A stretch of 64,000 bases of DNA from Vermamoeba vermiformis (GCA_045837725.1 JBEWZL010000209.1:124001-188000); one strand, 5' to 3'; counted from the stretch's first letter, positions 1 to 54,500 are shown. Notes: generated by a model from the sequence alone, not told the origin. Translations and numbers: made by a program.

Positions 1-2361
1 ATGTACTGTCATGTCGGAATAACGACTACGGGCCATAGTAAGGCCCGATAAATGACACATCTCCATTCAACCGTCACTAACGCTTGAATCCAGCATTAAA
101 GTCGCTGATATTACTGGCAAGAATGCTCAATACATCGTGCAGAAGAACTTGAAGGACATATTCTTGGGCATAGTGCAGTTCGCGCTGATTGGTGTGCCTG
201 CGTCGCTCGTCAACAGTGGCTTGCGTTACGCAACGGATTCGCTGTCGTTATTGTTCAGAAAACGACTGACCGATCATGTGAACAACGAGTACTTGAAGGG
301 CACTAACTTCTATAAGGCCTCCAACTTGGGCGGTGAGAGCAGAATTGACAACGCGTAAGTAGCGGATCTAACCTTAGAAGTGCTGTTCGAACCAGATGAT
401 TGATGCGTATATAGCGATCAACGAGTGACAAGAGATATTGAACGTTTCAGCGAGTCATTGAGCTCATTGTACGCGACTATCTTCAAGCCATTGTTGGATG
501 TGATCTTGTTTACGTACAAATTAGCTCTCGTGCTAGGTCCTCAAGGTCCTGCGCTTATATTTACTTATTACTTCTTCAACGCACTCGTCAAGCGATTCTT
601 GATGCCCGCCTTTGGTAAAGTAAGCAAAGTCTCGAATAATTTTTAGATCTCGGATATGCTCTCGAGAGGAATAAGAAGCTAATATAACGCTCTTATTAGT
701 TGACGGCGCGCGAGTCAGAACTCGAAGGCGACTATCGCATGGCACATCAACGGCTCATCACCAACAGCGAGGAGATCGCGTTCTACGACGGCAGCAAGCG
801 CGAGAAAGAGATCATTTCGCGCCTATTTATGGGCGTCTATCACCACGCCAACTACTTCAACCACCTCAAGTTCTTGGTCGGCATATTCGACGAGTTCTTA
901 GTCAAGTACGGTGCGAGCATCATTGGCTATGTGATCTTAGCGCTGCCCATCATTCAAGGTACGCCGTTAATAGGCCCCTATTCATATAGAGCTCTATACT
1001 CACCTCACACAGGCCGCACTGGCTCCAAGACCACCGCTGATCTCACGGGAGATTTCGTCCGAAATAGGCAATTGCTGATTTCACTCGCCAAGGCCATTGG
1101 TCAGCTCATCGTGCTCTTCAACAAAGGTACGTGTTTGACACGTGTCGCCAGTACACCTCCGCTCACTTGCCTTATTTAGTCACCATGCTCGCGGGTCTGA
1201 CAGCACGTGTCGCGGAATTACTCGAAATGGTCAAGACACTTGAAGGCGCGGGCAATGCTCCGTTTGAACTGCGCGATGATGACACGCGTCAAAAGGTGAC
1301 TCAGGCCGCACCCGAATCGCAGCCTGCTGACGTATACAAACAAGGTAAGTGGCACTTTGACACCTGTCACTCGACCAATGGCTAATGATACGTGTCAGAC
1401 GAGCACATTGACGCGTGGCTTGCCTCGTTCAGTGAACGCAAAACAGCGCAGCGAACACGTGTCATTTCGAATCCTCCAAGCGAGGCTGAGCTGCAGCAGT
1501 TAGCCGCGTCGAGCAAACAGCGCGGAGTGTTGCTGGAGGGCGAGCTGATCAAATTCATGAACGTGTCGATTGTGTCGCCTGAAGGCAAGTTGTTGGCACG
1601 TGACATGTCATTTGAAGTCAAGCGCGGTCAGAATGTCATCATCACTGGCCCCAACGGTGCTGGCAAGAGCAGTTTGTTCCGCATTCTCGTACGTAGCACA
1701 CGTGACACTTTGATGCAAACCACTGGTTGACACGTGTCACAGGGTGAACTCTGGCCCCTGCACTGCGGTGTAGTGGTCAAGCCGCGCAAAGAGGACGTTT
1801 TGTTTGTGCCGCAAAAGCCTTATTTGGTGTTGGGCACTCTGCGCGATCAGGTCATTTATCCGCACAAAGGTCAGTGTTTGACACGTGTCACTTGGCAAAG
1901 ACTAACCCATCATTGCAGAGGTTGACATGAAGGCAGCAGGAGTGACAGACTCGGACCTCGAACGACTGATGGACATTGTGGACCCTTCGCGCACCATCCT
2001 CAATCAGTGGAAGTGGGTAAGTGACGCCTGTCAAACACCGTTCTGTACCAATGATTCACTCTTGCAATCTCAGACCGAAGTCAAAGACTGGCTGAACACA
2101 TTCAGCGGTGGTCAAAAGCAACGTGTTGCAATGGCACGTGTCTTCTATCACCGTCCACTCTACGCCGTGCTCGATGAGTGCACGAGTGCAGTCTCGCTCG
2201 AAGTCGAGGGCATGATCTACGAGACCTGCAGCAAGTTGGGCATCACGCTGTTCACTGTCTCGCACAAGCCTTATCTGCGCAAATATCACGACTACGAGCT
2301 CAATCTCGATGGCCGCGGCGGATGGTCGTGGACTCAGATTGACAAGTCGCAGTTCCAGTAA
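1..2361 (+). CDS. Peroxisomal ABC half-transporter (ABCD/PMP70-like), 5'-partial, about 9 introns
   Basis: EAA-like loop '[24 protein letters not shown]', Walker [10 protein letters not shown], '[32 protein letters not shown]'; GT-AG introns e.g. 355-413, 1127-1178, 1689-1742. Confidence 0.93.
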
Positions 2362-2450
2362 TAAATAGACCTAATTGTAGCATCGAACGTTAAGTCAGGC
2401 AACTGATTCGCGATTTATATACAATGAGTGCACGACAGGTATGATACAAA

Positions 2451-3975
2451 TTACAGGCGTGGAATTCTGCGCACTGGCACTGCTTCGTCCCAAGGGCCAC
2501 TGATTTCACTGTGACACGTGTCAGTCAGAGTACACCGCAATGGATATAATTGATACGTACTTTTTATATTGCTGCACCCACTTGAGCCAATAGGGACAAA
2601 TAAAAGTGACAAAGAGCACACTGAGCACGTAAATGATGGCGAGGGGCTTGGAGAGCGGCACGATGAGCATGGTGACAATGAAGAACATGCTCCACGTCAA
2701 CACGAGACTCAGCTTGATCGAGTACATCTGTAGCAACACACGTTAGTGTTGTGACACTTCAAATGACACGTGTCACATGCTGTACTTGCCATCAGGTGGT
2801 AGCGCATGATGGGGAACAGAGCAAACAGCTCAATGGCCAGATACACCACTGCAAACACGTGATAGATGGAGGACAGGCGCGATGTCAACAGAACACTTGC
2901 AAAGATTGCTGCGTTCAGTGAAATTGGGCCCGTATACCTGCAAAGAATACTCGTTAAGAAAGAACTGCAATGATATGTGACACGCACGTGACATTGATGT
3001 CATTCTCCGAGCCAAGTGATGACGTGGCGCTGGGTGGTTTGAAGCGTTCGTACGAATAATCAAATGTAGCGAGGTGTATGACGAGAGTGATGACAGTGAG
3101 CGTGGTGATGGTGTCCGTGCTGATCGGTGCCGTCAGTGTCAGCAGCACGGGACTCAAGATCAACACGCCGAACACGACGAGCAACATCTTCCACAGCACT
3201 GGCACCCACACCTGCCACAACGTGCGACTGACACGTGACACCATGCGGTACGGACCTGTCAAACCTGTCACTTCACTGACACGTGTCAACGTTGATAGCA
3301 CGTGACTTACCGCCCCAAGAGCTCTGCAGCACAGCGCGCGTCGTGCGGCCAGTGGGTGCAACGAGAGCTGAGCGCGCACGAGGTCTGGTGGCAGGGGTCT
3401 CAGTGGCCACGCGCACGAGATAGCCGAACACGAGCAGCGCGAGCTCGACTGCTGAGAGCACGGGCAATGCAAGCAGTTGCGAATAGGTGTAAAAGAATCC
3501 GAGCAAAAAGAGTGCTACGACTGTGATCTGCTGCGTCACCACCGCGGAATCCATCACCACCGTCCAATAGTCGTACGGCACTACATTAACATTCTGTCGC
3601 AGACCAATCAGAAATGTATTGTCCACGTGATTGTCTTCGTACGGTTGTTTTTCCCACAAAATCTTTCGCCAAGGTGGCTTGCCATTCTCTTCTTCTGTGC
3701 GTTTCTGCAGATCCAAAAAAAAAATTAATAAAATATTTAAAAAATACTCAAATAAGCTTTTAAGGTGAAATTAGCGATTTATTAAGCAGAATCGTTAAGA
3801 TAAATTATTAATAGAATAAAGTACGTACTCTGGACGACGCTCTCTTCGCTCCACAGCTCGAACAGTTGGATTCGTCCAACACGAACATATTGCCGCAGAA
3901 CGGACAATAGCGCCATCGATGTTGCTTCAGCAGCAAAGTATTTTGCGATTTAGCGCGTTTCTGAGGATCCATCAT
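2451..3975 (-). CDS. PIGC: GPI-GlcNAc transferase subunit C (PIG-C/GPI2), with a predicted extra first exon
   Basis: 'WRKILWEKQPYEDNHVDNTFL', 'ISLNAAIFASVLLTSRL', C-terminal 'ISGPWDEA'; exon 3975-3829 splices in frame to KRTEEE. Confidence 0.9.
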
Positions 3976-4184
3976 TAATTGACTACGTGGACATTATTAA
4001 CCAATCCTTGAAATGTGATGCAAATCAATTGTAAGGAGATATACGGTATATTGTTGTGCAACGTGTTGCTCTTGTGTCGTGTCCCCTTACTGACAATTAT
4101 ATGGAAATTCACACATTTGGTTACGTCGACAAAAGATTCTGTCTCATCCATTTATTCTCATTACATTACCGAACTAACAACAAC

Positions 4185-7720: not shown

Positions 7721-9298
7721 ATGGCTGATCGAGAGATTGAAGAGCTGAATCAACTAGCGCAAGGTATATTAACACTAACACCGCGTGTTGCCTCACCTAG
7801 CACACCTCACCGTGCATCTGGACCCAAGCCTATTGTCGCCGTCCCGCAGTCCTCACCACGCACTCCGCGCGCTACCATCTCTACACCGCGATCACCCAGC
7901 ACCAGTGCAGCACCATTGGCCTCTTTGTCGAGCCCTCGCATGCGTCAAACAGCGCTCTTCACATTCAGAGGTGTGATCGCTGCTCGTACCGTTGAGAGCG
8001 CAAAGTCGATGCGTCGTCACTTGGAACACATGTGCGATGTGGTGATTACTACATATAGATACTGCATGGACAAGAGCAGAGAGAGCCCTGACGTCGTTGA
8101 CAAGTTGAAAGACATCGTGCAAGTACAACCAGATGTGGCTTTCTTCGTCGAATTCTGCATTGAAGAGACTGAAGCGTGCACGCGCGAGGCCTCTAAGGTC
8201 AAATTGCAAGCACTCAATGCGCGCGTTCAAGAGCTCACTGCTAGCTTGCCTCAAGATTTCCAAGCAATCAAAAGCGACACCTCTGTCTACGAGCGGATCT
8301 TCGACAAATTGCTCAGCTTGTTGGAGAATGTCAGCGAGTTCTTGAAGGAGGGGCACAAAGTCGAGGTGGGTCGTGTGCTAGACGTGGCCTATGAAGCGGT
8401 GTCAGAGACCAAAGCACTGCGCGACTTGGCCGATGAAGCCAACTTGGTGCCGCAAGCGCAACTCACGAGCAGAAAGTGCTTGGACCTGCTCAAGTACGTC
8501 ACTGCAGATATATCCTTCGCACTGTATTGACCGCGCATTGTAGATCCGCACGCCGTCTCGTCGAGCAGCAGAACACAGCGAAAGAGCTGCCCGATCGACT
8601 CTACGCCGCGCAGTCCGTGCTGCAAGCCTCGCTGCCCGTGTTCATCAAGAAGACACGCGAACGATTTGACGAGCCTGCCAAGTACGTACTAGTTCATACA
8701 ATAGTTCTGTGTGGTGCAGAGTAGCGATTGACACGTGTCAAACAGTGCCAGCAAGGGCGCAGAGTGCAGTGAGGCCGCACGACAAGTGAGTTTTGTGCTC
8801 GAAGAAGTGATCGCTATTGTGCGCAGTGTGGAAGTGGCGTACGAGACAGATTTCAAGCTGCAACACGAGCCTGTCATTCGCGATGGCGTGCTCAACAAGC
8901 TCGAACAAGCTGTCAAGAATGTCAAGGGCCACTTGACCAAGCTGCACACCGCGGCCAATGACCTCGATTCACGCGCCGCGAAAGAAGATCTGTTGGGTGC
9001 CACACAGGGCCTGGTCGACGATCTCAAGACCGTGCAGGGTCTGGAGGGTGAAGCGAGTGAGTTCGTGCAGACCATTCGTGCAGGCATGGAGCCGAGTCAC
9101 GATCAGCTGTTTGCCTCGCAGCGCAAGCTCGGTGATCTGCTGCAAGGTGTCAACAATCGCATGCTGGCACTCAGAGGCGCGAGCATCACCACGGACAGCG
9201 CAGACATCAATCGCGAGGACATGCTCGAAGCCGCCAAGTCGATGCTCAGTGCCCTCAAGGGTGTCAGTGCCACACTCGAGTCAGCACTCGATGAGTAG
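7721..9298 (+). CDS. Helical-bundle protein, vinculin/talin-rod-like
   Basis: Three ORFs joined by introns (about 8493-8543, 8682-8745); amphipathic helices such as 'DMLEAAKSMLSAL'; SP/TP-rich N-terminus. Confidence 0.55.
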
Positions 9299-9396: not shown

Positions 9397-12300
9397 TTAC
9401 CACTTAGTCGCTTGGGCGTACAGGTTCGGGAACAAATCAACAATTTCGTAGAAATTGAGTCGCTTTTGTGGATCCGAATGCCAACAGATCTGAATGAGCT
9501 CCGAATACGCAGCAGGCACGTGATTAGGGATACTTGGGCGCAGACCTTTCTGCACCGCTGCACCAAAGTCTGCTGTCGGTTTGCCACTCCAATCTGCAGC
9601 GTATTCCGCAAAAGGAAATCCTATTTGGAGGAGTTCCCAGAGAATTATTCCGTAGCTGTACACGTCAGCCTTGAGATCGTAGGGCTGATTCAACAGCACT
9701 TCAGGGGCGCACCAGTTCTCGTTCAGATCGCCACCGCGCATGGAGCCAGCGAGCATTTGTGCGGTACCAAAGTCCGTCACTTTGGCAGCCACCGCGGCGT
9801 GGTGATCGAGTGCCACCAACAGCACGTTGGGTGAGCGCAAGTCGCGGTGAATAACGTCCTCGCTGTGCAGATACGCCATGCCGCGAGCAATGTCTTGCGC
9901 TATTTTTAGTCGCAGTGGCCAGGGCAGCAGTGGTGCCACAGGCTGCTGATCGGCAGTGCGCAGTCGCTTGTCGAGAGCTCCGAGTGGATAGAAATCCATG
10001 ACCAGGGCCAGTGGACGCAGAGATATTCCGCGCAGTGCCACCAGACAGTCGTGCTGCAAATTGCACATCATGAAGGTCTCGTGCTGCAGTTCACTGAACG
10101 AGTCAGTCAAGAAATCTTCCTCTTGTTGCAGCAGCTGTTTGACAGCAAGAATTTTGTTCGGGTCTTCGTTGAACAGATCACGTGACTTAGCACGTGCGCG
10201 ATAAAGAGCTGCAAAGGCACCCTCAGCGACTTTGTCGAGCAGTTCCAAGCGATTGAACTCGATCACGAATGACGTGTCACTGCCAAAATCGAACATCACA
10301 TCGGGGGCTGCAGATGACAAGTTGACGGGTGTCACTGTGTCATCGCGGTGGCACTTGAGCTCCGTGTCACCGAGTCGCAGGGCTGACAGTACTGCTGTCA
10401 GGGCCCAGTGGGACGGTGTTTGACACGTGTCAAATGACGCGAGACAGTGCGGACATGGCACCTCAATGCCAGGGCTGTTGCTTAATTAGGAAAGAGTGTT
10501 GAGGCTATTACTGTACTTACCGAGCACGTGCCCATTGTCCTAAAGTGGAAATGCTGTCGCACAGCAGTGTCAGCAGTCCACCACGTGACACACCTGTCAC
10601 TCCGCGGCGTGTACGAATGCGCACGAGCACGCGACCACGTGCTTCATCGGCTATTAATAGCGCTCGCTGCGGAGATTTATCGAGATCGAGTTCGATGATC
10701 ATGCCTGATCTCCAGCACGTGATTGGTCGCACGCCTTTCAACTGCAGAGTGCGCGTGATCAAGCGCGACTGAAATAGTTGCAATGATTAGTCGTGGGCTA
10801 TAAATAGAAGCGAATGTCTTACGGCAAATCCAAGCGGCAAAAACTTAAACAGGAAATCGCGTCCGATCGGGTCGATCCACTCCTCGCTGACAGGTGTCAC
10901 TGGACACGTGACAGCACCCTCGCTGGCACTGTACAGCGCGAAGGGCTCGGGCCACGATTCACTGAACAGCTGTGTTGGTGGTGTTTCGGGCAACAGACAC
11001 GGAACAATAATTGGTCCGAGGGACATCGGAGATGACTCCGCACTGCTGTCACTCTCCGCGCTATTTTTAGCTTCCAGTGCGCGGTCCAGTCCCTGGCGCA
11101 GACTCAGCGCGGCTTGACGGGGAGCTCCGAGGCGCGGTCCCACTGGCCGCTTGCCACTGGCAGGGGTCTTATTGCCTGTTATGGAAGGTGCGCGCTTGAG
11201 TCGCTGTGCCACCTCAAAGTGCGAGAGCAAATCTACCAAAATAGGCCACAAGTGCTGCGGATAATCGCGCCAGACGTGCGGCAAGATCTGATCGGTGAGC
11301 ACGCCGTCCTTGATGTAGTTGTGTTTGAGTGTCACAATCGACGACATGACGTCTGACAGCCATTGCTATATATGGCAAGTGAGTCAGTAGTGGACTGCGC
11401 GCACTCCATCAAACAACACTTACCGGATTTAGAATGACAATGTCGCTGAGATTCTCTTCGCCCTTGTGCTCTATTTTTAGACTCTCAAAGGCCTTGACAA
11501 TGTGATCACGTGACTGCTCGCGATCAAATTTGGAAAAGTAGCTGATCACACCCACGTCGTTCATGAATTTCAGCACTGTGATCACGTCCTCGTCGGCCTC
11601 AATGCCCGATTCAGCCACGAATTCTTTGAATTCTTTCAGCGACATGATTTCCTTTTTTGAACGAATTTTCTTGATGTTGGACTCGAGTGCCACGTAACTC
11701 ATCGGCACGTGCTGATTGACAGCGGGATCTTGCAGGGCCAGGGTGATGAGTCGCGCTTTGAGCTCTTTGAGACCTTTGCCATTTTTGGAACTGACCGCGC
11801 AGTAGTCTTTGATCATGGGAAATCTCGACTGATATTTCTGCTTCATCTCGTTCAATATCTCGCGGTGCACTTTCTTGTCAGTCACGCGCTTGTCATCGAG
11901 GTGCGTGCCGACCAGCACGACAGGGGCAGTAGGTGCGCGCAGTTTGAGTGCTTTGAGCCAGTACTCGATGCGACTCGCGGAGATATCGACGAGATTGAAG
12001 ATGAGCAGGTACACACTGCGCGTGGTCAAGAAGAATTGGTGCGTGGGATAGTAGCTGTGGTGGCACCTGTCAGTTACGCGCGCAGAATAGTTGCAAAGAC
12101 TTACACTTCCTGACCGCCAAAGTCCCAGCACGAGAAGGTGAGATCGGAGGTGGTGGCACCTGTCACTGGATCACTCGCCGTGGTGTGCTCACTGGTGACA
12201 CCTGTCAACGTCCAGTCTTCAATGTCAATGCCGTCAGTGGCCACCGTGTCACCCGAGGCCTGTGTCGCCGCTGCACCCACTGGCGTCGTCTTCTTGCGTC

Positions 12301-14284
12301 GGAGCGTGCCTCCGAATGCGGAGCTGGTTCCGGAGGTCTCGACCAGGGCCTTGCGCAGACTCGTCTTGCCGACCTCTTCTTGGCCGACCAGCACCAACTT
12401 GACACGGCGCCACGAGGACTTGGAGGTGTTGAGCATTCTCAAAAAGGAAATAATGGCCGGTGTACCCTGCAACATAATCTCGCGCGGGATCAATTCAGTG
12501 AACGGATTGCCTTCGAGTCGGAGCGAGGTGTGTCCCGTGGCAATGCGCATCTGACCGATCTGATAGGGCAGTGACTGCAGCTTGTTGTTGCTGAGGTCGA
12601 GGTATGACAGCTGTGACAGCTTGATCACGTGGGGTGACACGTCACTCACCTCATTCGACTGCAAACACAACTCGCGCAGTGTGGTCAGCTGATAGAGCTC
12701 ACTCGGCAGTTCAGTGAATTTGTTGTTGTTCAAGTGCAGCGCTGTCAAACCTGTCAGTCGCGTGACACTTGCTGGCACACTTGACAGCTGACACGCCCCG
12801 GCCTTCAACACTTCCAAGCGGGATAATTCTCCGATATTTGCAGGCAATTGCGTCAAAGGATTGCCTTGCACCTCCAGCACTTCCAAATTAGGCAATTTGT
12901 CGATGCCATGGGGTAGTTCAGTGAATCGGTTGTCGTTGATGCGCAGAGTGCGGAGCAGACTCCAGTGCTGCAAATCATTGCTGAGCGCGTTCAGTGAATT
13001 GTGTCCGAGATCGAGCAGCACGAGGCGGTTGAGTGCGACTAAATTTAGCGGCACTGACTCGATCTTGTTGTGCTGCAAGTGCAATTCTTCGAGTGCCGCG
13101 CAGGAGGTGATGGCAAGTGGCACCTCGGGAATTTCATTGTTGTTCAACATCAAGATGCGCAAGTGATTCAACAGCGCGATCTGCGAGGGAATTTTCTTAA
13201 TTTGGTTGTGCGAGAGGTCCAAAATAGTCAAGTAGCCCAGTCCGCACAGTCGCTTGGGCACTGCTGTCAGTCTGTTGCGACTGAACTTGAACACTGACAG
13301 CCCTGATATTTGCAGCACTTCGCTGGGCACTTCGACCAGGGCCTGATCGGTGATCTCGATGTTCTTGGCATCCACGCCCTTCAAAATGCCTTTTTTGTAC
13401 ACAATGACCAGCGGCTGTTCGCTGCCACTCGCTGCACTGGGCGTGGGATAGTTCCCAGAGGGCAGTGAATCACGTGCCACTGTGACACCTGTCACCGGTG
13501 AACTGACTGCACGTGTCAACGGGGAATTGCCACCGTGCGAATAACTGGGGGAAGTGGCGCCAGGAGTGTGCAGATTGGGCTGCGAATAGCCATAATTGGA
13601 AGTGGCAGGGTACGGGCCCGTGTAGTTCGGTGTTGCCAAATTAGGCGAGGAGTAGCTTGGATTGGTGCTCGGGTACGCGGGGGTGTTCGTGTAGTTGGGG
13701 GTGTGCTGTGGACTCGCAGTGCCACTACCATAATTGGCAGGTGCGGAATAATTGCTGCCGGTCGGGCTCGGATAATTGGCGGGGTAATTGCCTGCAGGGC
13801 TGTAATTGCCGGGATACGGAGCAGCAGTGCCATAATTAGGTGCCGCATTACCATAATTGGTAGTATTACCATAATTGGCAGTGGTGTTGGGGTACGGAGC
13901 AGGATAGCTGTTCACGGGTGCAGTGTAGTTCAGTGTGGTGGGATAGGTGCCAGTAGGATAGCTTTGAGGAGGATAATAGGCTGCAGTAGTAGGTGCAGTA
14001 GTGTTCGGATAGTAGCCTGGGCCTGGCTGCGGATGTGGCGCTGGATTGGGACTGCTTGGGTACGCCGCGGGGTACGACGGCTGACCAGGGGCATAGTACC
14101 CAGGCTGTGTATTATACGGGGTCGTATTATACGGACCAGCGGTATTATTGGCAGGATAATTAGCGTAAGGATTGGGCTGCATAACAACAATCAGATGCGG
14201 TACGGAAGTTAAGAGTTAAATTGGCAAGTTGAGTAGTGAGGGACATAAATTCATGATAATTAGTGGCGCAATACTTACTTGCAT
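9397..14284 (-). CDS. Roco-family kinase (Pro/Tyr-rich N-terminus, LRRs, Roc GTPase, COR, TKL kinase)
   Basis: LRR array, 'KLVLVGQEEVGKTSL', 'WDFGGQE', 'LVGTHLD', 'HRDLRSPNVLL', 'VTDFG', 'WCAPE'. Confidence 0.95.
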
Positions 14285-30268: not shown

Positions 30269-30448
30269 ACCTCTGTTTGACACGTGTCATTCACGCACTT
30301 GTACAGTTCCATTCTTGTAAAGTTAAGCTTGCCGCACATTGAATTCGAGTTTTATTCGAGGTAGTAATAGTACAAAAAAAAACAACAAAATGACAATTAA
30401 ACAGCAAGTATTCACAATTAACGAGTGCTATGTACAAATAAGGCAAGT

Positions 30449-33624: not shown

Positions 33625-36600
33625 ATGGCATCCGATACTTTAACAGCATTTTATGGCGATTTAAATAAGGAGAATATGCTCCCTGTAAGTACATACCTAT
33701 TATATCGCATATTATTATTAAATATATCGCATTACTTAAGCGAACATCAAATACCGTATTCAAAATAACAATTATTTTTCAAAAATAATAATTTATCGAT
33801 TAAATTATAGAATACTTCGCCATCGACCCCGCCTAAGATGGCCAAGGGAGCTCGTATTCAACCCTATAGTCCGGGCGCGAAATCTTACAATGACGAATCT
33901 GATCAAACAACGCATCCCTTGGCGCAATCCAAGCCGATCACAACCGCACAACATACATACGAACGCGAGCTGACAGAGAGTGCAGTCAACGCCATGGAGC
34001 AACAAGAGCTCGCAGCCCTGTGTCTGCGCTTGAATCGCCGTGTGGTGGAGAGTGAGCTGGAAGTGAGTGAGCTCGAGCACCGCTTGCAAGACGTCACTGA
34101 GCGCGGTCGCGATCTGCTCGACAAGTTCACGACGCGCGTGCGACAGTTGCAGCGCTTGAAGCAACAGTACGACGAGACCAAGCACAAAGTGTTGCAGCAG
34201 CAGGGCCTCGAGGACGATGTGCTCACTCTGCGCAAACAAGTCGCGGATCTGGAGCGCGCACTGCGTACTGCAAAGAGCACACCGAGCACGAGCACGAGCG
34301 AGGAGAGCAGCGACAGCACGGTGGAGTCGTTGAGCATTCGCGCTGAACTGTTGCGCGCGCACAATGTCACGCTGGAAGATCAGCTGCGCCGCGTGAAGCA
34401 ACAGCAGCACGAGAAGGACCAGACCATTGCGCAGCTGCACGGTGAATTGAAGCGCGTGCAGCAGTCCGTGGCTGAACAGGTGATTGTCAAGGACGATGTC
34501 ATCACGCGCCTCGAGCACACCATTGACGAGTAAGTCATTGCTATATTTGGCAATGTCACGTGACACTGACGCGTACACAGACTCCGCCAACAGCTGACCA
34601 ATGAGCGAGCAGCACGCCAGCACGACGAACTGCGCGCCGAAGAACGATTGCAAAGGTAAGCACGTGCTGCTGCGTGCCAGCTGTGACTGACCGTTGTTGC
34701 AGTGTCCGCGCCGAGTACGAGAGCAAGTGGCAGCAGCAGCGCGAGGACAGTGCGAGTCTGTTGAGCGATGTCGCAGAGTTGAGCGAGACCGTCAAACTGC
34801 GCGACATGACCTGCGCGGAACTGACGCGTCGTGAGAAGGAGTTGTTGGGTCGATTGGAGGAGCAGACCAAGCTCAATGCTAACCTCGAGGTATGGGGACT
34901 GTAACTAGTAGTGTGGCTGAGTACTGACTTGGCGATGCAGAACGACATCCGCTTGATCTACAAGAAACACCAACAAGATCTGAAGGAAGTCGCTGAGCGA
35001 TACAAGGTAATTAGGATTGCCCAACTATCACCACGATATTAATCAACGCATGCAGTACGAAGACTACCGCTCGCGCTACAGTGCGGTGGTGCAAGACCGC
35101 GATGCCCTGGTTGATCACGTGACAGAGTGCTGGTCAGTGGTCGAGGACTCGCTGGAACTCACTGCGCTGCAACAAGAACTCAGTGCGCACCTCGCTGACA
35201 CCACTGCGCTATTTTTAGACCGCGCTCAGCACGTATCTCAAGTGCGAGATCGCGTGGTGTCCAATCAGCAACAATTGGAGCACGTGCACGCACAACAGAC
35301 ACGTGCAATGACGGAGATGCGCGCTGCTATTCGTGAACGCGAGTCAGTGATTGACACGTTGACAGGCGAGTGTCAACAACTGCACACTCAGCTGTCACAT
35401 GTCACGCAACACGTGGCTGCACGAGATGACATGGTAAGTGGACATTACTATATTTGGCAATAGCATCCAATACTCATTGCGCCATGCAGATCAACAATCT
35501 CCGCGCCGATCTCGCCGCTCGTGAGGATGAAATCTCCGACTTGCAATCGAGTGTCACGGAGCTGACAGCGGAATTACTCGCGCGTCAAGCCCTGGCAGAG
35601 AGCTCGCACGAAATCATGCAAGAACAACTGGAGCGCGTGACAGCACTGAACACGGAGCTGTACAGCGAACTCGATCAGACGCGCCAAGAACTGCTGCAGC
35701 ACGTGTCCGCACTGCACACTCAGCACGAAGAGGCACAGGTGTTGAAGCGCGCAGTGTGGGACCGACAGCGCGACGTGCACTGCTTGACACGCGATGTGAC
35801 TGCACTGCGCGAGACCATTGAGTTCATTGAACAAGAGCGCATCATCGCTGAGAATCACGCCACCGAGCTCAATGACCAAATTAGGCAATTGACTGAACAA
35901 CTCTGCACTGCTCAAGACGACAACACGCGCCTGACAGCGGAGATTGCCGAGATGCAACACGAGAGCGCAGAACAACGCGCAGCCATTGAGTCACGTGATC
36001 AGAACATCGCTCAACTTCGCGGAGATCTTGCCGAGATGCGTGCAGCACACGAGCACGTGACTGAAGAGTTGGCCCGCACACGCGAACAGCTGCAACAACA
36101 GCAACGACTGGAGAGCGAGGTGCGCACCATGTTGAGCGAGACAGTGGCACGTGACAACGAGCACGTGGAGCAGTTGGAGCGTGAAATCTCCCTGGCGATG
36201 GGTCGCGAACTGTTGCTGACGTCACAAGTGCACTCCAGCACGCGCCGCATCGAGTCACTGATGCTGGAGCAAGACGAGTTGACAGCACGCATCGCACACT
36301 TGCAGCGTCACGTGACTGACCTCGAAGTGTCTGCGGAAGAATTGCAGCAGACGATTCAAGCACGTGATCAACAGCTGCACGACTTGACCGCACAGCACGA
36401 GCAGCACGTGACTCGTCTCACCGAAGAGCGATCACGTGACTTGACTGCGCGCGATGAAGAATTGCAACGCATGCGCAGCCACTACGAAGAGGGTTTGACA
36501 CGTGTCAAATCGGAGTTCCAATCGCAGCTGGAACACCAAATTAAGAACACTGACAGCACCAAGGCCGAGTTGACAGCACAGCTCATCAGTGCGGAACAAG

Positions 36601-37487: not shown

Positions 37488-37576
37488 GCTGAGCTCTGTA
37501 ATTACTGAGAATAGGGCACTTTAATTAGTGATTTATTCTGTTTGTATATTGTAACATAAAACCCTCGAGTTTGATA

Positions 37577-39501
37577 TTATGCACTGTCTGGTTTGTTCGC
37601 TTCGGCCAAGCTGACAATAAGAGGTTAGTACTATATGCGAGGCCCGTGAGTGCGCACTACCTGAGCTGTTCGGTGACAAACTGCGTGAGGTGGTCGAGTG
37701 TGGCAGGACCGTAGTAGTAGACGGGCGTGCTGTTGTGTGCGCGCCAGAACAAGAAGCTGGGCAGCACTGAGACCTGTGCGGCACAGTGGTGAGTACGGCA
37801 CTGCAGGACTGACGCGCACTTACATTGAGCTGTGCCTCGACTGGCAGTGTGCCCTGATTGATGTCAAATGCCCCCACCAAGATCTGATGTCCCTCGCGGG
37901 GTGTGCTGAGCTGTGCCGCGAGTTGTTCCCAGACAGGTGTCACGGCACGGCAGTTGACGCACCACTGCGCGTAGAACTCGACGAACACGTGACGTGCCTC
38001 TGTGCCCTGCAGCACTGCATTGAGCTCATCCAGCGCCAAGTGCGCGACAGCACTGTCCTCACTGAACACGGGGGCTTGTTCCTCGCGGGGACGTGACACG
38101 TGCCACTCGCTGAGCCAGTTGATTGCGCCCTTGTTGGTCACGTGCTGTTCAGGGTCCCACACAGCCTCGAGACCCTTGAGTCCCACGACTGCCAGTGTTG
38201 GTAGCTGCGAGGCATCGAGCCCAACGAGGGGCAAGAAGGCACCGAACAGCCCGCCGTTGAAGAGCACAAAGTCGTACTCGTCGTGCAAGCTCTTGGCGGC
38301 AGCTTTGAAGGCATTCAGCACGGCACTGGACTGCTCCTTGGACTCGCTCACTGCTGCAATCACTTTCGGCTTGCTGCCTGCAAAGACACCTGTTTGACAC
38401 GTGTCAATAACATACTGACAGGCTGTTAGCGGGTACTTACGGAACACGTTGAAGAATGAAAAGTCTTGCTACGAGTGAAGGTCAGCTGTGTGGTACGACA
38501 TTGCCATAAAAGGAAATACTCACGTAAAGCGGTGTGTTCTGTTCTTGAATCAGTTTGACCAGGGCACTGAAGTCGTACTGACTGACATCTTCAATCACGT
38601 GACCCTTCTCGCCTGGACGATAAATCACCAGCGAATCATCGCGCTTGATCTTCAAGCTAAAAATAGATCAGCGGAGTTCAGTGTCTGACACGTGTCACAT
38701 ACCTCTTCGCAGCCTCAGCACGTGTCACGAGCATGAAGTCGATGTCGTTCTGAAAGTGACGCGCGACACGTGTGAAAGTGTCAAGAGTTTCCTTTTTTGT
38801 CGAGCCCTGGTCGAGATAGGCAATCACATAGACACTCTCGCGGTCCTCTTCACTGAACTGCTTGCGCTGTGTCTTGGTGTCGAGTGCGCGCACAGCAGGC
38901 ACGGTGAACAGTCGCTGCAGCCAATCACCGAACACGAGGCCCATGCGCTGGCCCAGGTACTCGCGGCTGCGTCCTTCGCGAATCACGTGGAGGGCGGGCA
39001 CCATGGAGACTTGCAGCTGACAGGTGTCAATAGGTGACTTGTGCGAGCAGAGTGACACTTACGCGCGTGACTATATCAGGGTGTGCCTGTGCATCGATCG
39101 ACACGAACACGATCTGACCGGGACCGAGCACTTGATTGAAGCGTGCTTCGATGCCCTCTAATTCACCAGTCAATCGCTCGACTTGTTCTTTGGCGGCTTC
39201 TTGATTGGTGGTACTATAAGGACTATTAATAGCTGCTGGCATGTTGGAGCAAATAAGGCCACAATAATTATTAATAATAATAATATAATATTATCCGCCA
39301 ATTATCTCTGATCTACTCTGCAAAACAGCATGCGCTATATATACACGAAGCCAACACATATCATACGTACAGAAATACTACAACTACATCGTGGGTGCGC
39401 GCGAGCTGATCCAAGTCCTTAGTCGCCACCGCTTTGAGTGCGTGACTGCAGGTTAGTGCACTCAATACGAGGCACACGAGTGCAATGATATTAGCGCGCA
39501 T
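37577..39501 (-). CDS. Secreted/ER multi-thioredoxin-fold (PDI-like) protein
   Basis: Signal peptide MRANIIALVCLVLSALTCSHA; 'FVEFYAQWCVNC'; 3' end uncertain (37657 or 37577). Confidence 0.75.
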
Positions 39502-39639
39502 TGATATATAGATACTACTAGTGGTACTGCAATGCGCTGAACAATTCTAAAGATATTTCGCTGCGCTGAGAATTCATCGAGTGCGAGCAATAGACTTTAT
39601 TATGAATACAGTGCTATGTACAGTAGTATAGGCGATCCT

Positions 39640-42255: not shown

Positions 42256-42257
42256 AC

Positions 42258-43136: not shown

Positions 43137-46100
43137 ATGAGTCAACTCCTCAAAACGTACATTCTGCAGGCAGTGAATAGCGTGAAAGAGTTCTACAAAC
43201 AGTCGCCCAAGCTGCCTATTGTCGTCTTTTATCGCTATTTGTGGGAACACAATCGCAACTTGTTGTTGAAGACACTCTTCTTCAACTACATCTTTCCAGT
43301 CATGGTAGAAATATTGCCGTAAGTTACTCTATCATATAGTGCTATTTATAATCATATCAGATCGTTACAATGGCAATTAAGACCCTAAAATTAATATTTC
43401 AATTAATTTTTGTGATTTTTTTCTCGTCCCAATGCCCGGTCTGAAACATTAGATTGCTAATCAGTGCTATTCTATTCTAATTATAGATGGTGGGCCTCTC
43501 GACGTAAAGTCGGCAACAAGTTGCGTAGTTCTCGGATCAAGCTGAACCACAACATGGTTACAGGCCAGGACTTTGTATTCAGCAAAATGCAGGATTTCTT
43601 GCTCAAATGTTTCTTATATATATTCTTGGACAGTAGCACTCGCGTCATTAAGAACAGACTCGTATCCTAATTCACTCCGATCTAGATCCAGACTTTTATA
43701 ACCTCGTTTACTTGTTTCTCCTTGACATTTGTGCACTCTAGGCCCTCGAAAACAAGTTCGTCATTAAGAAGTTGGTGTTAGAGAAGATTTTGTATTCCGA
43801 ATCGCGTGCCTTCGAGACGCTGAACATCAACACGGAGAATCTGGAAGAGAAGATCACGAATGATATTACAGACACGCTGAACTTCATCAACAGATACTTG
43901 CCCTCGCTAGTCTCAGGACTCTACGCCTTTGGTATTGAATCAGCCATGCTCTATCGCAAGCGCCACACGATCGACATGTTGGCGGTGATCTATCCGCTCA
44001 TCATTGCGAGCTTCAACAAGCTGCTGGACATTATACAGAAGCGCTATTTAAAGAAGAAACAAAAAATCAAGTCCAAGCACAACACTGACATGTTGGACAG
44101 TTGCATGGCCAATGCGATTGCTGGATTCACTGACATCCAAGTCAACAACTTGCAAGAGGTCGAACTTGGCTTCTTTGAGCGTGTGGCACGTGAGTAGCAT
44201 CATAATGAGCACTAATACGATGCATCATATTGACGCATTTACAGAGAAAGAAATCAACAACAAAGAGGGGTTCAAAGGGTTTTTAATTAAATCCATTTCC
44301 ACCATCAATCAAATGTCTGTATTCGCCTATGCAATTGAGGTCTATTTTGTACATAAGGTGAGTCATATAGCACATCTCTATTTGTTGCTGTGTACTCACG
44401 TTGCAATCAGATCATGAAACGACAGAACTTTGACCACAAACAATTCTCTAAAATTCAGCAAGAGATCGATCACGTTGTGTACGTAGTATATTAATGTATG
44501 CCTATTATATCAGCTATTAACGGCCTCGCAGCACATTGGCCCGCAATTCCTACAATTTGTTGACCAAGAGCAAGTCGCTCTTCAAATATCAGTCCAAAGT
44601 CGGCAAATTGTTGCACATTCAGAACTGGCGCAATGAAATGCAACACTTGCACGTGAGGTACGCTGTTTGACACCTCTGACACCTGTCACTAACCACGCTG
44701 CAGCGAGATCACCGAGTTCACTGAACTGCGCATTCGCGGCGTCAAGTTCAGCTATCGCGAGGACCAATTGGCAGCGCTCAACTTGCAAGAGGATCAAGAG
44801 ATCTTGGTACGTGTCACAGCTCACCACGTGATTGTGTCTAATTCACTGAAATGTTCAGTTCGAGGCCGGCAAGAAGTACGCGTTGATTGGTCAGAACAAA
44901 GCGGGCAAGTCCACGCTGACCAAGATCATCTGCAAGCTGTACAAGCCTGACGAGGGCTACATTGCCCTCAACGGCATTCCTTATTCGGAAATACCACGTG
45001 TCGTGCTGCGCAATCTCATCTCGTACATTCCACAAAAGGCGTTCATATTCCCCGGCACTATTCGCGAGAACATTCTCGTCGGCAATCCCAACGCCACTGA
45101 AGAGGAGTGTAAGTAGTGAAGTGCAGTTGTTTAGTGGCCCTCTACTCACACTTCACCAGTGCTCGCAGCCGCAGAAGCAGCAGGCGTGTTCGCATTCGTG
45201 GTCAATGATCTCAGTCCGCGCATGCGTCGCACATTCAGCACACCCAACTTCGCCAATCAGTTGAGTGCTGAGAGTGAGAACAAATCACCGCTCAAGCGCA
45301 CTGGTCTCAAGCCACACCCCGAGAGCTCCATGTTGCGCACTGTCAGCTACAAAGAGCTCGACAGCATTGTCTCGCCGCACCCCGAGAGTGACTTCTACTC
45401 CAACTCGCAGTTCGGCATGTATCCCCTCGTGCTGCCTGACCGAGTGCGCGGCAAACACACGCGCTCCAAGAAAGACAAAGGCCCCAAGCCCTCATCGTTC
45501 TTGACAGACTCGATTGACTGGGACAGCGATGACAGCGATGAGGACTCGTCGGAAGATGAGTCGCGCGATGAGAATGACTCGGACGAGGACAGCGCGGAGA
45601 GTGACGAGAAGACGCAGATCATGAAGACGAGTGCCGATGTGATGGAGGACAACAACGACTTGGCGACCAGTGGCGAGGGCGAGAAGAAAGAGAAGAAGAA
45701 GAAGAAAAAGAAGTACAAGAAGAGCGGCTCTAGTCTCAATCTGCGCGCTAGTTACGAGAACAGCGCGAACTTCAAGGCGCACAAGATGGACAAGTCCAAG
45801 CACCCCATTCTCGATCAGTACATTGGCGGCGATGTCAGTGGTGGATTCGCGCAGTCGATCTCACTGGCGCGCGTGTTTGTGCGCACCTCAGCCAAGATAG
45901 TGATACTGGACGAGTCGATGAGTCAAATGGATCAGATCAAAGTGCGCTCTATTGTCTTCCCGAAGCTGTTTCAATTCGTCAACAAGTGGAACATGTGCTT
46001 GATCATCATTACGCACAACATGACTGCCATGCACGATCTGGATCACATCTACGTGCTGCACGAGGGTGAAATAGCGCATGAGGGCACGCATCAACAGCTC

Positions 46101-46748: not shown

Positions 46749-48654
46749 ATGTCGAATTGGCCCTTTATCAACGAAGAACCCTCTGAAAGTCAACTTGACG
46801 AGACCTCGCAGTCCGATGGCAAAAAAGTTATTCCCTTCGCCGTGAGGGCTTGTGACTTTTGCAAGAAGCGCAAGATCCGCTGTGAAGGCACCATTCCCTG
46901 CACCGCCTGTCAGCGCCGAGGACAAGTTTGCACATTCACGCGCGAACAGAGCAAGCGAGGACCCAAGCCCAAGCGCGTGCGTCGTGAAGCAGTGCCCTCA
47001 ATGGCGAGTGGTCGTGCGGGCAGTGGTGCGAGTGAGGAGGTGAGCGGTGAACTGATCAGCTTGCAGCCCCTCACTCAGGACCTGTCCAAGCTCAAGATTG
47101 AACTCGAAATTCAAAAGCGCCTTGAAGCCCATTGGAAGCAGCAGTACTTTGATCTCTTGCAGCAACAGCAGAGCACTCAACTCGCGCTCGGCAGCTCTAA
47201 TGTGCCGGCCTATCTGCGCGGCATATTCATCGACAACAACACCACTGGCCTCGCACTCGATGTCTCGCCTGAATCGCCGCTGATTGGTCAGTTCTCCAGC
47301 ACCAGTTGGGGTCTGATTCGTGACCCTGACATTCCTCTCAAGCTGCAAACACTGTTTTCAGATGCAAATATGTGCACACTCCCGAGCTACAAATTGATGC
47401 TGCCCATCGACGAGCCAGTCAATAGCCTAATTTGGAAAGTGTTGATGCACAACACTGCTGACAGCATTGCAGACTTTCTGCGCCACGAGACCACACCGCT
47501 CGTGCTGCAGTTCATGCAGTCCGCAGTCGTGTTCGCTCAAGGACTGCGCGGCCTGGACGAGGACCAGCAACACTTGGACATTGGCAATCACTTGCTGCTC
47601 ATCATCAACGGCGCATTCAACATCTTGTTCTATCAGCGCGAGGTCCAGTACAACATCAAATACGTCAAACAGATCGCGTACGAGTTGCTCAATCTCGCGC
47701 AGTTCCTCAAGTACACGGGCACTGGTGCCGCGGCCAAACAACTCTCGCCGCTGTTGGTGCAAATCATGCAACAGTTCGAACCTGCGCTCGATGATCCTGA
47801 ACTGCTCACCAAGTACGTCTTATTCTAGTGGTTTGTAATTGAATACTGACATGTCGTGCAGTGCTTATGGACATCTGATACACAAGTCCGAATCGGCGAG
47901 TGAGCGCGACTATTGGATGGCCAAGTTGAATGGTGTGCAAGTGGTACGGTTGTTGATACTAATGCTCGTGTGACATCCATTTGACACGTGTCATTTAGCA
48001 AAATCCGCTCAGCAAGGCCATGCGAGACTTTACCGTGGTGATTTCAGGCCTCAAAATTCTATCGCCGCAGTCACAGTCCAGACAAGAGTTGAACGACTAC
48101 TTGCAACGCATTGACGCAGCTCAAGAGGTGTTGACGAGTGCCGCTGAAGCTGATCCCAAGAACCGTGAAAATTACAAGTTCTTTGCCATCTGGGCGCACA
48201 TGTCGCGTGCTGAAGTGTTTCATCGCTTGAATGAAATGCAACAACACGAACTCGCGCTCAAAGAGACCATGCGCAGATATTTTGCGCTGCCTCGCAACAT
48301 GTTCCGAAAAGCACTGCGCGGTCTGGCTTCGGTATGACACTTTATATGACGGGCACGTGTCCATCATTGCTAATATCTCCTTCGCAGTTAATCACCACTG
48401 AAGGTGTCACTTTAGTAACGGCCAGCAAGCTGTTGCAGCTCACAGACACGACATTCGACCCCAATGGCATGCCGCGCGACCTGTCGCTGATCATTCAACC
48501 ACCCACCAGCTCCGTAGTCGAGATTCATTCGAGCTCAGACGAAATCAATTCTGATGTCGTGTCACTGTCCCCACACGACTCCAATGAATCGAATGAAAAC
48601 TTTGAAGATTTTATTTTTGACCCGATCGTTGAACAGATGACTGAAGCTATGTAA
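46749..48654 (+). CDS. Zn(II)2Cys6 binuclear-cluster transcription factor
   Basis: 'ACDFCKKRKIRCEGTIPCTACQRRGQVC' then 'KRGPK' and a coiled coil; 3 introns. Confidence 0.9.
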
Positions 48655-51443: not shown

Positions 51444-51589
51444 TTTGAAATGTTTTGTGGTATATTGTTCATCTTTTTGCAAATATTGAAAGAAGCCAAA
51501 ATTTTCCTTTTTGGATCCCGACAATAAACTCAATCAATTACAGATGCATTCGATTCGGTTTATTTACAAATAAGTACAATGGTCACCTA

Positions 51590-54500
51590 TCACGTGACTT
51601 TGAAGAACTGCAGCACACTCGACAGTCGCGCGAGTCTCTTAGCGACAGCGGCGTGTAGCGGCAGAATAGAGTGGCGAACAGGACCGTCCAGCCAAGACAG
51701 CGCCCAGCACTCGCGCACGAAATCTCGAATCACGTGGTGCATGTTTGGGAGATATTCAGCGCGACCGTGCTCTAAATATAGGCGCGCAAAGAGCACTGTT
51801 TGCGCAGGACACAGCGAAGAATTGCAGTTCTGCATCGCTGTCGGGGCCACGAGATACGCAGAGATCAGCGGCCGAGTCACGTGCGGGGGTGAGGGCGGAA
51901 CATTTCCAGGCGTGGAGGGCGTGGCCGGGGAGTGCAGACTGTTCATGTTGCGCGGACGCACCGTGGAGGTGTCAAAGTGACAGGTCGGATGTGGCGGATA
52001 GAACGCAAAGCTTTCAGTTGCCAGCTGCTCGCTGTGCGTGGCATCGAATATGAACTGCAATTCGCGATTGAAGGTGATAGAGGCCACGTGCGCGCTGAGA
52101 ATGATGTCGGAGTAGGCGACGTCAGGGCCTGACAGCACGTGTTGCCATTCTTGGAGTTCATTGGGCAAGAACTCGCCATATTTAGTAATGATAACGTGCC
52201 ACCGCTTCAATGGCAGCAATTTGTTGCAAAGACTCCACAACTGGCTCGTCTGATCGTGCATGTCGCGCTGTGTTTTGAGCAGGCGTGCTTCGAGGAATTC
52301 ACCGCGCGCATCAGTGCAACAGACTGCTGTCCAATCACCGTAGTCCGAGGCTGTGTAACAAAAATGGAAGTAATCACGTGCTTGCGATGAGCCAGCTGGT
52401 TTTGCGTCTAAAAATAGCTCAGGCATGTCACTGGCACTCTTCTCGGGCAGTCCATTTGCAGGCGCGAGAACAGCACTGGGCTCGAACAATTTGAATGACT
52501 TGAACGCGGTTAGTATTGCTAAATATAGAACAATGAGCACAGCTACGTACATTGTTGGTGAGCGAGGACATGGTGGGTGTGGAGGGCGTGGTGTGATTGG
52601 TCTTGTTCGTCATCACTGTCACGCGACGACTCTTGTTGAACACCGAGAAGCACAGTGCCTTGACTTTGGTCGAGTCTGCACGCTTGTCGATCACGTGACT
52701 GATTGGGATGGGTTGCAGAATCAAATTCAAATTGCCTTTTTTGGACGTAATTTCAGCAATCGAGGCGAGACACTTGTAGAGCAGGGCTTGATTTTGTTGC
52801 GTGGCAGGTGACTTGGTCACGTGATCGAATGGGAACACAATGTAGACTACAATACAGCTGTCTGAATATGCATTCAACACGGAGTCCTCGCACAGATGAT
52901 TGGCTGCATGGAATGTGTTAATAGACATCACGGCCAATCACCTAAATACGTACCCAAGTTCTTGCAGGACTCGACGAATTGCGAGGCATAATTGTACTTG
53001 ACTTCAGCGCTGATAATGTCCTCTGAGTCGGCCATGTCCGGTGCGAATACAATTCCTTCACCAAATTTGGAAGTCTGCGCTGCTTTGTGTTTGCCCAAGT
53101 TGCAGAGCTCGTAAATAGCACTCAGCTCGTTGAAGAAGGTGATGACCTGATTGAGCAAGAACTGATTGTCAGGTGTGATCACAAAGTACGCCACATTCTT
53201 CTTTGGGGCGTAGGGCTCTAAATTCGCTTTTTCCCAAAAAGGCAATAGCTTTGGCGGAACTTCCAGCCATTCTTCTTGATATCCAACGAGAAATTTCGGT
53301 TCTTTGAGCTCTTCAACGAACGGATTTGCTGGTGTGGCATTATTTGTGTTGGCCGCGGAGTTGTTGATCAATGCGCGCACCAACTTGTCGCCACCGCCGA
53401 TGAGTGACCAATCATTGAACGACAACGGGCCCTTGCACTCGATCGAGGACTTGGTGTTGCGCAGCATGTTCTGCAGTGAGCTTGTGAGCAATGATTGCAC
53501 GTGATCGGTCAGTCGTCTGTTCGAAGTGAGGGGCATGGAAATCGGGTCTAAAATGAGCTCCAACAACCAGCTGTTCGGCTCTTCTTGTGTTTGAAAGTCT
53601 CTGAGTGCCGAGTAGACACCAGTCCAGTTCTGGCGCTGCTGTCGCACTTCAATCATGAACTGTGCTGCGCGGTCAACCAACACGCCGACGTTGTTTTCAT
53701 TGTCAAATGACACGTCGTAGCCAATCAGTGCTTGTTGTTCAATCACTTCAATCAGTCGCTGCAGTTGAGTGTCACGCAGCGCAAATTGAGTGCCGGGTGG
53801 AGTGTTGGACTTGATGTATGGAATAGGAGTCATGCCTGGTGTGTGCGGTGTTTTGATGGCATTGCTCGGGGTGGATGGATTGCGCGGGAATTGAGAGGGT
53901 GAGGGCTGTGAAGTGGGTGACATCTGATTGTAGAGGCCAGGGGAGTGCACTTGCAGCGAGTATGGCGTGTGTTGAGGCGTGAGTGAGTGACCTACTGAGC
54001 CGAATGATGGCACGTGTTGTGGTGTGTAGGCCGAGAAATAGTGCTTGAAGTGCTGCATGATGTCGAGTGCGTGCAAGTCTATGTTCAGCGCATCGAGCAC
54101 GTAGGTCAGTTTGACAGCTGTCACTGGGCTGTAACGCGATGACAACAGCTGCGTGATTAAGTTGTTGCCGCGCGGTCCTCGATCTTCACGCGAGATCGGA
54201 TTGATCAATTCAAAGTGCGGCAGCGGTGAAGACTTGTTGCCAACATTTCCCTTGATGACGTCACTGGGCTTGACATCGGGTGTGAAGGGCGGTGGATTGG
54301 ACGAGTCACCGTTGAGCTCATCCATCGGGTGATCTCTGTCGAATGGATTGTCCAGTGCCATCTCCTCGTCACTGTCGCTGTCACTGCTGCTCTCGCTGTC
54401 ACTCTCATCGCTGCTGATGTTGTCCAGCATGGAACTTCGCTCTTTGAGGTCGCCGAGCTTCGGATCAGAATTGCCTTGTTTGGATGTGCTGTCAGACATC

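Follow-up and report, generated by a model that had tools for sequence, protein, structure and literature searches.

An E-box-type palindrome as a candidate iterated, conserved, intragenic element in the amoeba Vermamoeba vermiformis

A 64,000-nucleotide stretch of DNA from the free-living amoeba Vermamoeba vermiformis (GCA_045837725.1 JBEWZL010000209.1:124001-188000; the whole of this stretch is referred to below as the window) carries numerous copies of a 12-bp palindrome, TGACACGTGTCA, with the hexamer CACGTG as its core. The palindrome is strongly enriched, is written into coding DNA through synonymous codon choice, is concentrated in introns, is conserved in relatives, differs in abundance from gene to gene and is not part of a transposon body. 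These observations point to a previously undescribed, putative sequence-reading system acting inside genes, in which an E-box-type palindrome would recur within genes as a conserved element. The reading that we prefer, with a probability of roughly 0.4, is that of a selected 12-bp site which would be read on duplex DNA by an E-box-like dimeric factor within transcription units. The statistics given here are based on the 64-kb window together with three short contigs from relatives (L001-L003).

The window contains exactly the 12 perfect copies of TGACACGTGTCA claimed in the original prediction for this DNA, as well as the eight copies that it had listed with altered spacers, seven with CC/GG and one with GC (at 54112) in place of the central CG (Table 1). 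These 20 matches to the spacer-degenerate form TGACANNTGTCA all have the structure TGA-CANNTG-TCA and compare with a mean of 0.19 in dinucleotide shuffles, none of 100 of which reaches the observed count; for the perfect 12-mer the mean is 0.02 and, again, none of 100 shuffles reaches 12. The excess of the 12-mer also persists at every order from 3 to 5 under Markov models, a check that had been proposed together with the prediction: counted on both strands there are 24 occurrences (i.e. 12 sites) versus 0.07, 0.23 and 0.88 expected at orders 3, 4 and 5 respectively, or, in terms of sites, 12 versus 0.44 at the fifth order. The half-sites CACGTGAC/GTCACGTG, which had been described as abundant, are similarly in excess (54 versus 7.3 at order 3). 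The 12 perfect copies are almost as numerous as the versions with one mismatch (14) and two mismatches (20). Half of the one-mismatch variants (seven of 14) have the central CG changed to CC/GG, by which the CANNTG pattern is retained, and none of the 14 is a product of CpG deamination.

Dissection of the site indicates that the enrichment resides in its core. CACGTG is the most frequent hexamer of the window (120 sites versus 23.8 at order 1), and among the 64 palindromic hexamers compared only GAGCTC is otherwise clearly high (55 versus 19.5 at order 1). The leading palindromic 10-mers are GACACGTGTC (13) and GTCACGTGAC (5), which yields a core-to-flank hierarchy of 120 CACGTG, 13 GACACGTGTC and 12 full 12-mers, i.e. 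from the core via the core with an adjoining [AT]C to the 12-mer. The original prediction had instead taken a TGACA dyad as the enriched unit and had compared it to the sites of TALE homeodomain dimers. Neither proposal holds, as TGACA alone is weakly enriched (313 versus 216 at order 1 and 271 at order 3), whereas the excess sits in CACGTG (5x), and the GC spacer of a TALE-type site is present in just one of the 20 copies. The related hexamer CACCTG shows no enrichment on its own (33 versus 33), and CATGTG/CACATG is depleted (21 versus 62 at order 1 or 34 at order 2). Other words that are under-represented relative to order 1 include CATG (412 versus 788), CCGG (104 versus 223) and TGCATG (23 versus 79). 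In most copies the palindromy ends at 12 bp, and the self-hairpin is of 4 bp only. When copies are oriented by the gene strand, the base 5' of the motif is T in 11, G in six, C in two and A in no cases, and the complement of the base 3' of the motif is T in five, G in eight, C in four and A in two; this flank preference shows no clear asymmetry between the sense and antisense sides.

The effect of the site on coding DNA was analyzed in the 68 strongest coding segments (38.2 kb), either by shuffling synonymous codons within each segment or by permuting the codons. CACGTG occurs 86 times in these segments, versus 34.2 +/- 3.8 after synonymous shuffling and 14.4 +/- 3.4 after codon permutation; the corresponding values are 64, 14.7 and 2.6 for the half-site CACGTG[AT]C, and 8, 0.8 and 0.0 for TGACANNTGTCA. 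The gap between the two kinds of shuffle (14 versus 34) implies that amino-acid neighborhoods are also tilted towards contexts that permit the site. Of the coding CACGTG sites, 38 are in the frame CAC-GTG, 44 in the frame NCA-CGT-G and four in the third frame. Arginine is encoded by CGT in 134 of 611 cases overall, which rises to 44 of 52 between a preceding codon with terminal CA and a following codon with initial G, and 44 of the 46 occurrences of CA-CGT precede a G. In genes of at least 900 bp the site is realized in 77 of the 125 permissive contexts (62%), these being His-Val or [STPA]-Arg-[GAVDE], with CGC to CGT and NCN to NCA as the most frequently used codon routes. As a separate observation, GAGCTC is found 44 times in coding DNA versus 26 after synonymous shuffling.

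It is very improbable that these counts reflect the relics of a transposon or introner, or that they simply arise from codon usage and base composition. Introns have indeed been gained or lost in this lineage (the case of 959-1013 is described below), and the codons needed for the site are preferred ones, CAC accounting for 92% of His and GTG for 66% of Val in the coding map. Against this, neither Markov models of orders 3-5 nor the synonymous and codon shuffles account for the counts, and a codon-usage or composition artefact was rejected on these grounds. The mean best-orientation pairwise identity of the 50-nt flanks of the 20 copies is 0.306 versus 0.281 for random positions, which bears out the earlier contention that the motif is not a transposon body; terminal repeats, target duplications and a longer consensus are absent around the copies. 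The motif-bearing introns have nothing in common beyond the 12 bp, and the intron that differs between relatives is without the motif. Given the unrelated flanks and the otherwise dissimilar introns, a transposon or introner relic was rejected as well. Of the TT/AA flanks that had also been noted, a preference for T at positions -2/-1 is recovered, but it is weak and is the only flank signal.

The distribution of the copies was assessed with a rough coding map, derived from a codon log-likelihood trained on seven Pfam-supported open reading frames (ORFs). The motif had been described as dispersed through gene bodies, and 19 of the 20 copies do fall within the rough gene spans, but their distribution is uneven and gene-specific and the full 12-mer is mostly intronic: 11 copies are assigned to introns, eight to coding DNA and one lies between convergent 3' ends. 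In terms of these rough classes the density of the 12-mer is 1.45 per kb in within-gene noncoding DNA (6.2 kb), 0.19 per kb in coding DNA (41.5 kb) and 0.12 per kb in intergenic DNA (16.3 kb). The 120 CACGTG sites are divided into 87 in coding segments, 22 in within-gene noncoding DNA and 11 in 'intergenic' DNA, with CACGTG exceeding the order 1 expectation 4.5x, 10.2x and 3.4x in these classes, respectively. Examples are two convergent genes at the start of the window, namely a plus-strand ABCD-type ABC transporter gene (86-2358), with short introns of 49-60 nt, and a minus-strand PIG-C gene with five introns. Five introns of the former (1127, 1345, 1689, 1870 and 2017) possess the motif or a near copy of it, while three of the five PIG-C introns contain a perfect 12-mer and a fourth has a CACGTG spanning its 5' junction. 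The position within the intron is variable: the distance from the 5' splice site is 6-14 nt for some copies, whereas others end 1-5 nt before the 3' splice site.

This intronic concentration might alternatively reflect an RNA-level element, i.e. CACGUG/UGACACGUGUCA being read in pre-mRNA or mRNA by an RNA-binding protein or through the pairing of self-complementary copies, which may aid the definition of very short introns, processing or the marking of transcripts. We regard this as unlikely, even though it would account for several features of the distribution. The 19 copies in gene spans would all be transcribed, and the density of the 12-mer is approximately 12x higher in introns than between genes. 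Several copies adjoin splice signals (TGACACGTGTCACAG at 1728 and 2512), those at 1136, 1358, 1879 and 38686 lie 6-14 nt after a 5' splice site, two complementary copies are present in some introns (1689-1742; about 3256-3312), and the intronic copies are conserved as strongly as splice sites (see below). However, there is no fixed position in the intron, many introns are without the motif, and the motif is also found in exons, where it is the center, i.e. the would-be hairpin loop, that is best kept. A single-strand reader would not need a perfect palindrome, and the flanks are without clear strand asymmetry. The predicted folds of 12 motif-bearing introns are no better than those of shuffles (z averaging about -0.1 and ranging from -1.91 to +0.87), with z from -1.30 to +1.64 in eight motif-free introns; there is no extra stability of the former relative to the latter, and an RNA hairpin was accordingly rejected.

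Relatives of this locus were obtained by scanning metagenome contigs with a PIG-C exon as the query, which recovered three loci. Two of these, L002 and L003, are genomic orthologues, with L002 showing 74.6% identity over 7171 aligned bases, and they carry four perfect copies and two to three variants. The third, L001, aligns with window positions 2401-4041 in three pieces at about 77-88% nucleotide identity and is missing all five PIG-C introns, as would be expected for a spliced transcript (or a processed copy) from a related strain. The alignments place the motif at the matching position in the introns starting at 1127, 1345, 1689, 1870, 2509, 2727 and 3256, with the remainder of these introns having diverged, including indels of up to 58 nt. 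In the 12 introns common to the window and L002 the identical columns amount to 89 of 96 in the motif, 279 of 551 in the other intron sequence and 91 of 103 in the splice sites (Fisher p about 1e-16), figures which would be somewhat inflated by the picking of copies in the window for scoring in the relative and by the aligner, which may anchor on identical words. Judged by these columns, the intronic copies appear to be constrained about as strongly as the splice sites, and none of the perfect intronic 12-mers is lost in L002. The core is kept less stably in exons: the window has 18 CACGTG sites and L002 has 13 in the compared region, of which 11 are common, two are confined to L002 and seven to the window (1139, 1204, 1456, 2135, 3624, 4775 and 5935); the site at 1139, in the intron 1127-1179, is kept in L002 in the form CACCTG. 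The ABCD intron 959-1013 (55 nt, GTACGC...CACAG), which is without the motif, is precisely missing in both L002 and L003, implying intron gain or loss between close relatives.

Use of the motif is also specific to particular genes. Intervals of 2 kb contain between 0 and 13 CACGTG sites, with the peak in 36-38 kb; 30 sites are present in 34001-40000 and none in 24001-28000 (the E1-beta-like and S-adenosylhomocysteine hydrolase (SAHH) genes), 42-44 kb and 56001-60000. The realized share of permissive contexts varies by gene (chi-square p = 0.016, permutation p = 0.006), being 0 of 5 in 7994-9295 and 0 of 3 in 46728-48645, in comparison to 10 of 13 in the CCDC93 gene and 17 of 25 in 33826-37469. 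This gene-level density is retained in the relative, with the ABCD and PIG-C genes rich and the genes at 4.2-7.3 kb poor in both. In the motif-rich genes CACGTG is found at 3-6 per kb across the whole length of genes of unrelated function. By fifths of gene length the sites number 10, 14, 23, 39 and 17, which suggests a 5' depletion, although, with the sites clustered in few genes, we make no claim of it. A link to convergent gene pairs was considered and dropped, as some convergent pairs are rich in the motif and others have none.

Such heterogeneity between genes bears on two further explanations. The first is a drive resembling the highly iterated palindrome (HIP) of cyanobacteria in its outcome, in which sequence-specific modification coupled to repair (such as a CACGTG methyltransferase of the orphan type and a mismatch endonuclease cognate to it), or biased conversion, would turn near-cognate sequences into the motif. 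Such a drive would favor transcribed DNA and would make a function of each individual site unnecessary. This too appears a doubtful account. It is consistent with the site being written into coding DNA in every frame that the protein permits, as in HIP1, with the elevation of CACGTG even in intergenic DNA, with the turnover of exonic sites between relatives, with perfect copies that are more numerous than decay would yield, and with the low count of CATGTG/CACATG. However, CATG is low everywhere, so that the depletion of this neighbor is not specific and is uninformative as a very-short-patch-like signature, and the methyltransferase or biased repair suggested in the original prediction is hypothetical, while the main synonymous routes (CGC to CGT and NCN to NCA) are unlike those of a T:G-specific repair. 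A blind genome-wide drive is also at odds with the variation of the realized fraction between genes, some of which have no sites in 4 kb, and a 12-bp recognition sequence with a tolerated CACCTG center is unlike the known sites of type II enzymes.

The second is an ordinary regulon, i.e. homotypic clusters of sites for one transcription factor controlling a subset of genes, which would be intragenic only because intergenic DNA is short. Plant bZIP factors use GACACGTGTC as a G-box/ABRE (abscisic acid-responsive element) word. The studies containing GACACGTGTC include, as far as their listings and abstracts go, work on plant promoters and stress, and both the gene-specific distribution and its retention in the relative would suit such a regulon. 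Nevertheless, we consider it quite improbable, given that the density of CACGTG over whole unrelated genes is far above that of usual site clusters, that 62% of the permissive codon contexts are realized and that copies are absent from promoters.

The above-described observations are, in our view, best accommodated by selection for a site on duplex DNA. According to this proposal TGACACGTGTCA would be the complete version of a palindrome of 12 bp that serves as a recognition site, has the E-box CACGTG as its core and is kept inside transcription units by purifying selection. Short introns, being otherwise unconstrained, would hold the full 12-mer, whereas exons would hold only the part compatible with the protein, through codon choice (CAC-GTG and NCA-CGT-G) and probably some choice of amino acids. 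The putative reader would most likely be a homodimeric bHLH-like E-box protein that binds double-stranded DNA, tolerates CACCTG with full flanks and acts in gene bodies rather than promoters, where it may control particular genes via chromatin or in a transcription-coupled manner. The changes of the central CG to CC/GG that keep CANNTG, the lack of a deamination product, the lack of clear strand asymmetry and the lack of a fold favor a symmetric site on duplex DNA with a dimer as its reader; that this reader is a protein dimer on DNA, as well as its family and its action, is our inference.

Several points weigh against this proposal, among them the inflation of the conservation figures mentioned above. 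None of the 20 copies is in an obvious promoter, which is unusual for a transcription-factor site, and, together with the single copy between genes, would fit an RNA-level or transcription-coupled process. More generally, a classical transcription-factor reading is disfavored because intergenic DNA has hardly any copies and whole genes show the above densities. Four of the seven window-only CACGTG sites are exonic (1204, 1456, 2135 and 3624), and in light of this turnover position-specific selection is shown for the intronic copies only. Finally, the gene model is largely home-made, with introns derived mostly from reading-frame logic, and outside support is available for six introns only, namely the five of PIG-C (from the spliced contig L001) and one of CCDC93 (from a transcriptome protein).

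Comparisons with known systems place the motif close to several of them, but within none. HIP1 (GCGATCGC) is described in the literature as a highly iterated palindrome of cyanobacteria (PMC4390886). For HIP1 the cause is unresolved. The amoeba motif resembles it in being a short palindrome found far above expectation, embedded in coding DNA through codons and amino acids and not part of a mobile element. HIP1 is 8 bp long, prokaryotic and evenly spread; the amoeba motif, in contrast, is eukaryotic, of 12 bp with a 6-bp core, gene-specific, concentrated in introns and not even in its distribution. Thus, of the HIP-like reading offered in the original prediction, an over-represented, non-transposon palindrome in eukaryotic gene bodies, written via codon choice as in HIP1, stands, but the copies are not evenly dispersed. 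It is in our estimate rather unlikely that the motif represents, in a eukaryote, what HIP1, Chi and uptake sequences are among the iterated-motif systems of bacteria, in the sense of a dedicated, sequence-specific machinery that would write and maintain the palindrome in transcription units, with sufficient force to distort the usage of codons and amino acids.

The E-box/G-box sites of bHLH(-ZIP) and G-box bZIP factors occur in promoters and enhancers, with few copies per gene. The amoeba motif shares with them the CACGTG core and palindromic flanks as for a homodimer, and its variants CACCTG and CAGCTG still conform to CANNTG, but within genes its density is as high as 5-6 per kb, synonymous exon positions included, with almost none between genes. 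The site of TALE homeodomain dimers (MEIS/PKNOX/TGIF) is TGACAGCTGTCA, and the inverted TGACA half-sites with a 2-bp G/C spacer are reminiscent of it; unlike in the TALE dyad, the spacer is GC in one of 20 copies and the enrichment is carried by CACGTG, not TGACA. Introns derived from introners or miniature inverted-repeat transposable elements are found in Micromonas, Aureococcus and others. They are likewise repeated sequences in many short protist introns, and in the amoeba lineage intron presence and absence differ too, but the amoeba copies share only 12 bp and are old and conserved, not recent insertions. At the level of listings and abstracts, the literature yielded nothing of relevance on the 12-mer, the 10-mer or a HIP-like iterated palindrome inside eukaryotic genes. 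The main text of the V. vermiformis CDC-19 genome paper, which puts the number of introns per gene at 3.5 and the GC content at 41.7%, has no occurrences of motif, palindrom- or methyl-.

The window itself is eukaryotic DNA, and its source is V. vermiformis or a near relative: the CCDC93 ORF shows 96% identity with a transcriptome protein in EukProt whose accession carries the name V. vermiformis, with the next named matches, from dictyostelids and Balamuthia, at 32-35% identity. Pfam matches identify, besides the ABCD-type transporter and PIG-C/GPI2, an LRR-Roc-COR-kinase (ROCO) gene, a double TKL kinase, CCDC93, a Med13-like protein, a PHD protein, a Zn2Cys6 protein, an eRF1-like protein, a transketolase-fold E1-beta-like protein and SAHH; Rfam and tRNA scans of the window returned no matches. 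The approximately 3 kb between the CCDC93 and double-kinase genes (19000-22000) show hardly any coding signal in the codon map, and CACGTG is absent from 20001-22000. Among the many introns of the window GTACGT is about as frequent as GTAAGT at the 5' splice site (e.g. in the introns at 1127, 1689, 2509, 8494, 8682, 41078, 44807, 47813, 52499, 52904 and 54963). The predicted intron lengths cluster at 44-64 nt, and a CTNAC-like branch site is situated 10-15 nt upstream of the AG. A further observation concerns an identical 17-nt stretch, TTGACACGTGTCAAACA, in two unrelated genes (10421-10437 and 38395-38411), comprising the 12-mer with one base before and four after it, and framed in both copies as Asp-Thr-Cys-Gln-Thr.

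Table 1. Copies and variants of the 12-bp palindrome in the window, with their location and their state in relatives.
Element	Position	Location	Relatives or remarks
Near copy TGACACGTGTCG (1 mismatch)	1136..1147	ABCD intron 1127-1179	TGACACCTGTCA at the same place in the L002/L003 orthologue
TGACACCTGTCA	1358..1369	ABCD intron 1345-1398	Identical in L002/L003; remaining intron diverged
Perfect	1728..1739	ABCD intron 1689-1742; ends 3 nt before 3' splice site	12/12 conserved
Perfect	1879..1890	ABCD intron 1870-1918; 10 nt after 5' splice site	12/12 conserved despite 58-nt insertion in the L002 intron
Perfect	2512..2523	PIG-C (GPI2, minus-strand gene) intron 2509-2560	Intron missing in spliced L001; 12/12 in L002
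Perfect	2764..2775	PIG-C intron about 2727-2790	Intron missing in L001; 11/12 conserved
Perfect	3277..3288	PIG-C intron about 3256-3312; second CACGTG at 3299	Intron missing in L001; 12/12 conserved
Perfect	8729..8740	Predicted intron 8682-8745 (+); ends 5 nt before 3' splice site	Prediction only
Perfect	10421..10432	Probably coding (..FDTCQT..), ROCO/kinase gene, minus strand	Frame stays open through the copy; a GTAAGT...AACAG intron lies upstream of it
TGACAGGTGTCA variant	10888..10899	Coding, ROCO gene	
TGACACCTGTCA variant	12196..12207	LRR-coding exon	
TGACACCTGTCA variant	13483..13494	LRR-coding exon	
Perfect	30278..30289	13 nt beyond coding segment 29972-30265, between convergent genes; 3' untranslated region or intergenic	
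TGACAGGTGTCA variant	31591..31602	Coding, PHD-finger gene	
Perfect	36496..36507	Coding (..GLTRVK..), coiled-coil gene	Frame from segment 35481-37469
Perfect	38395..38406	Probably coding (..IDTCQT..); also covered by a candidate intron of 67 nt (GTAAGT..CAG), the splicing of which would lead to a stop in the favored frame	
Perfect	38686..38697	Predicted 46-nt intron 38657-38702 (minus); 6 nt after 5' splice site	
Variant	39018..39029	Predicted 46-nt intron 39017-39062 (minus); adjoins 3' splice site	
TGACACCTGTCA variant	44677..44688	Predicted intron 44658-44703 (+)	
Perfect	47982..47993	Predicted 200-nt intron 47813-48012 (+)	Prediction only
TGACAGCTGTCA variant	54112..54123	Coding, Med13-like gene, minus strand	

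If the pattern holds genome-wide, a single short palindrome would shape intron sequence, codon choice and some of the amino-acid choice in a free-living amoeba, and would be, to our knowledge, the first HIP-like iterated palindrome inside the genes of a eukaryote. It would then also be relevant to gene prediction and codon models in Amoebozoa. The 12-mer offers, as a probe, a testable handle on a putative DNA- or RNA-reading factor in Amoebozoa. Should a dedicated machinery indeed be involved, the motif could mark self genes or provide a gene-body chromatin signal in a host that is constantly attacked by giant viruses and intracellular bacteria.

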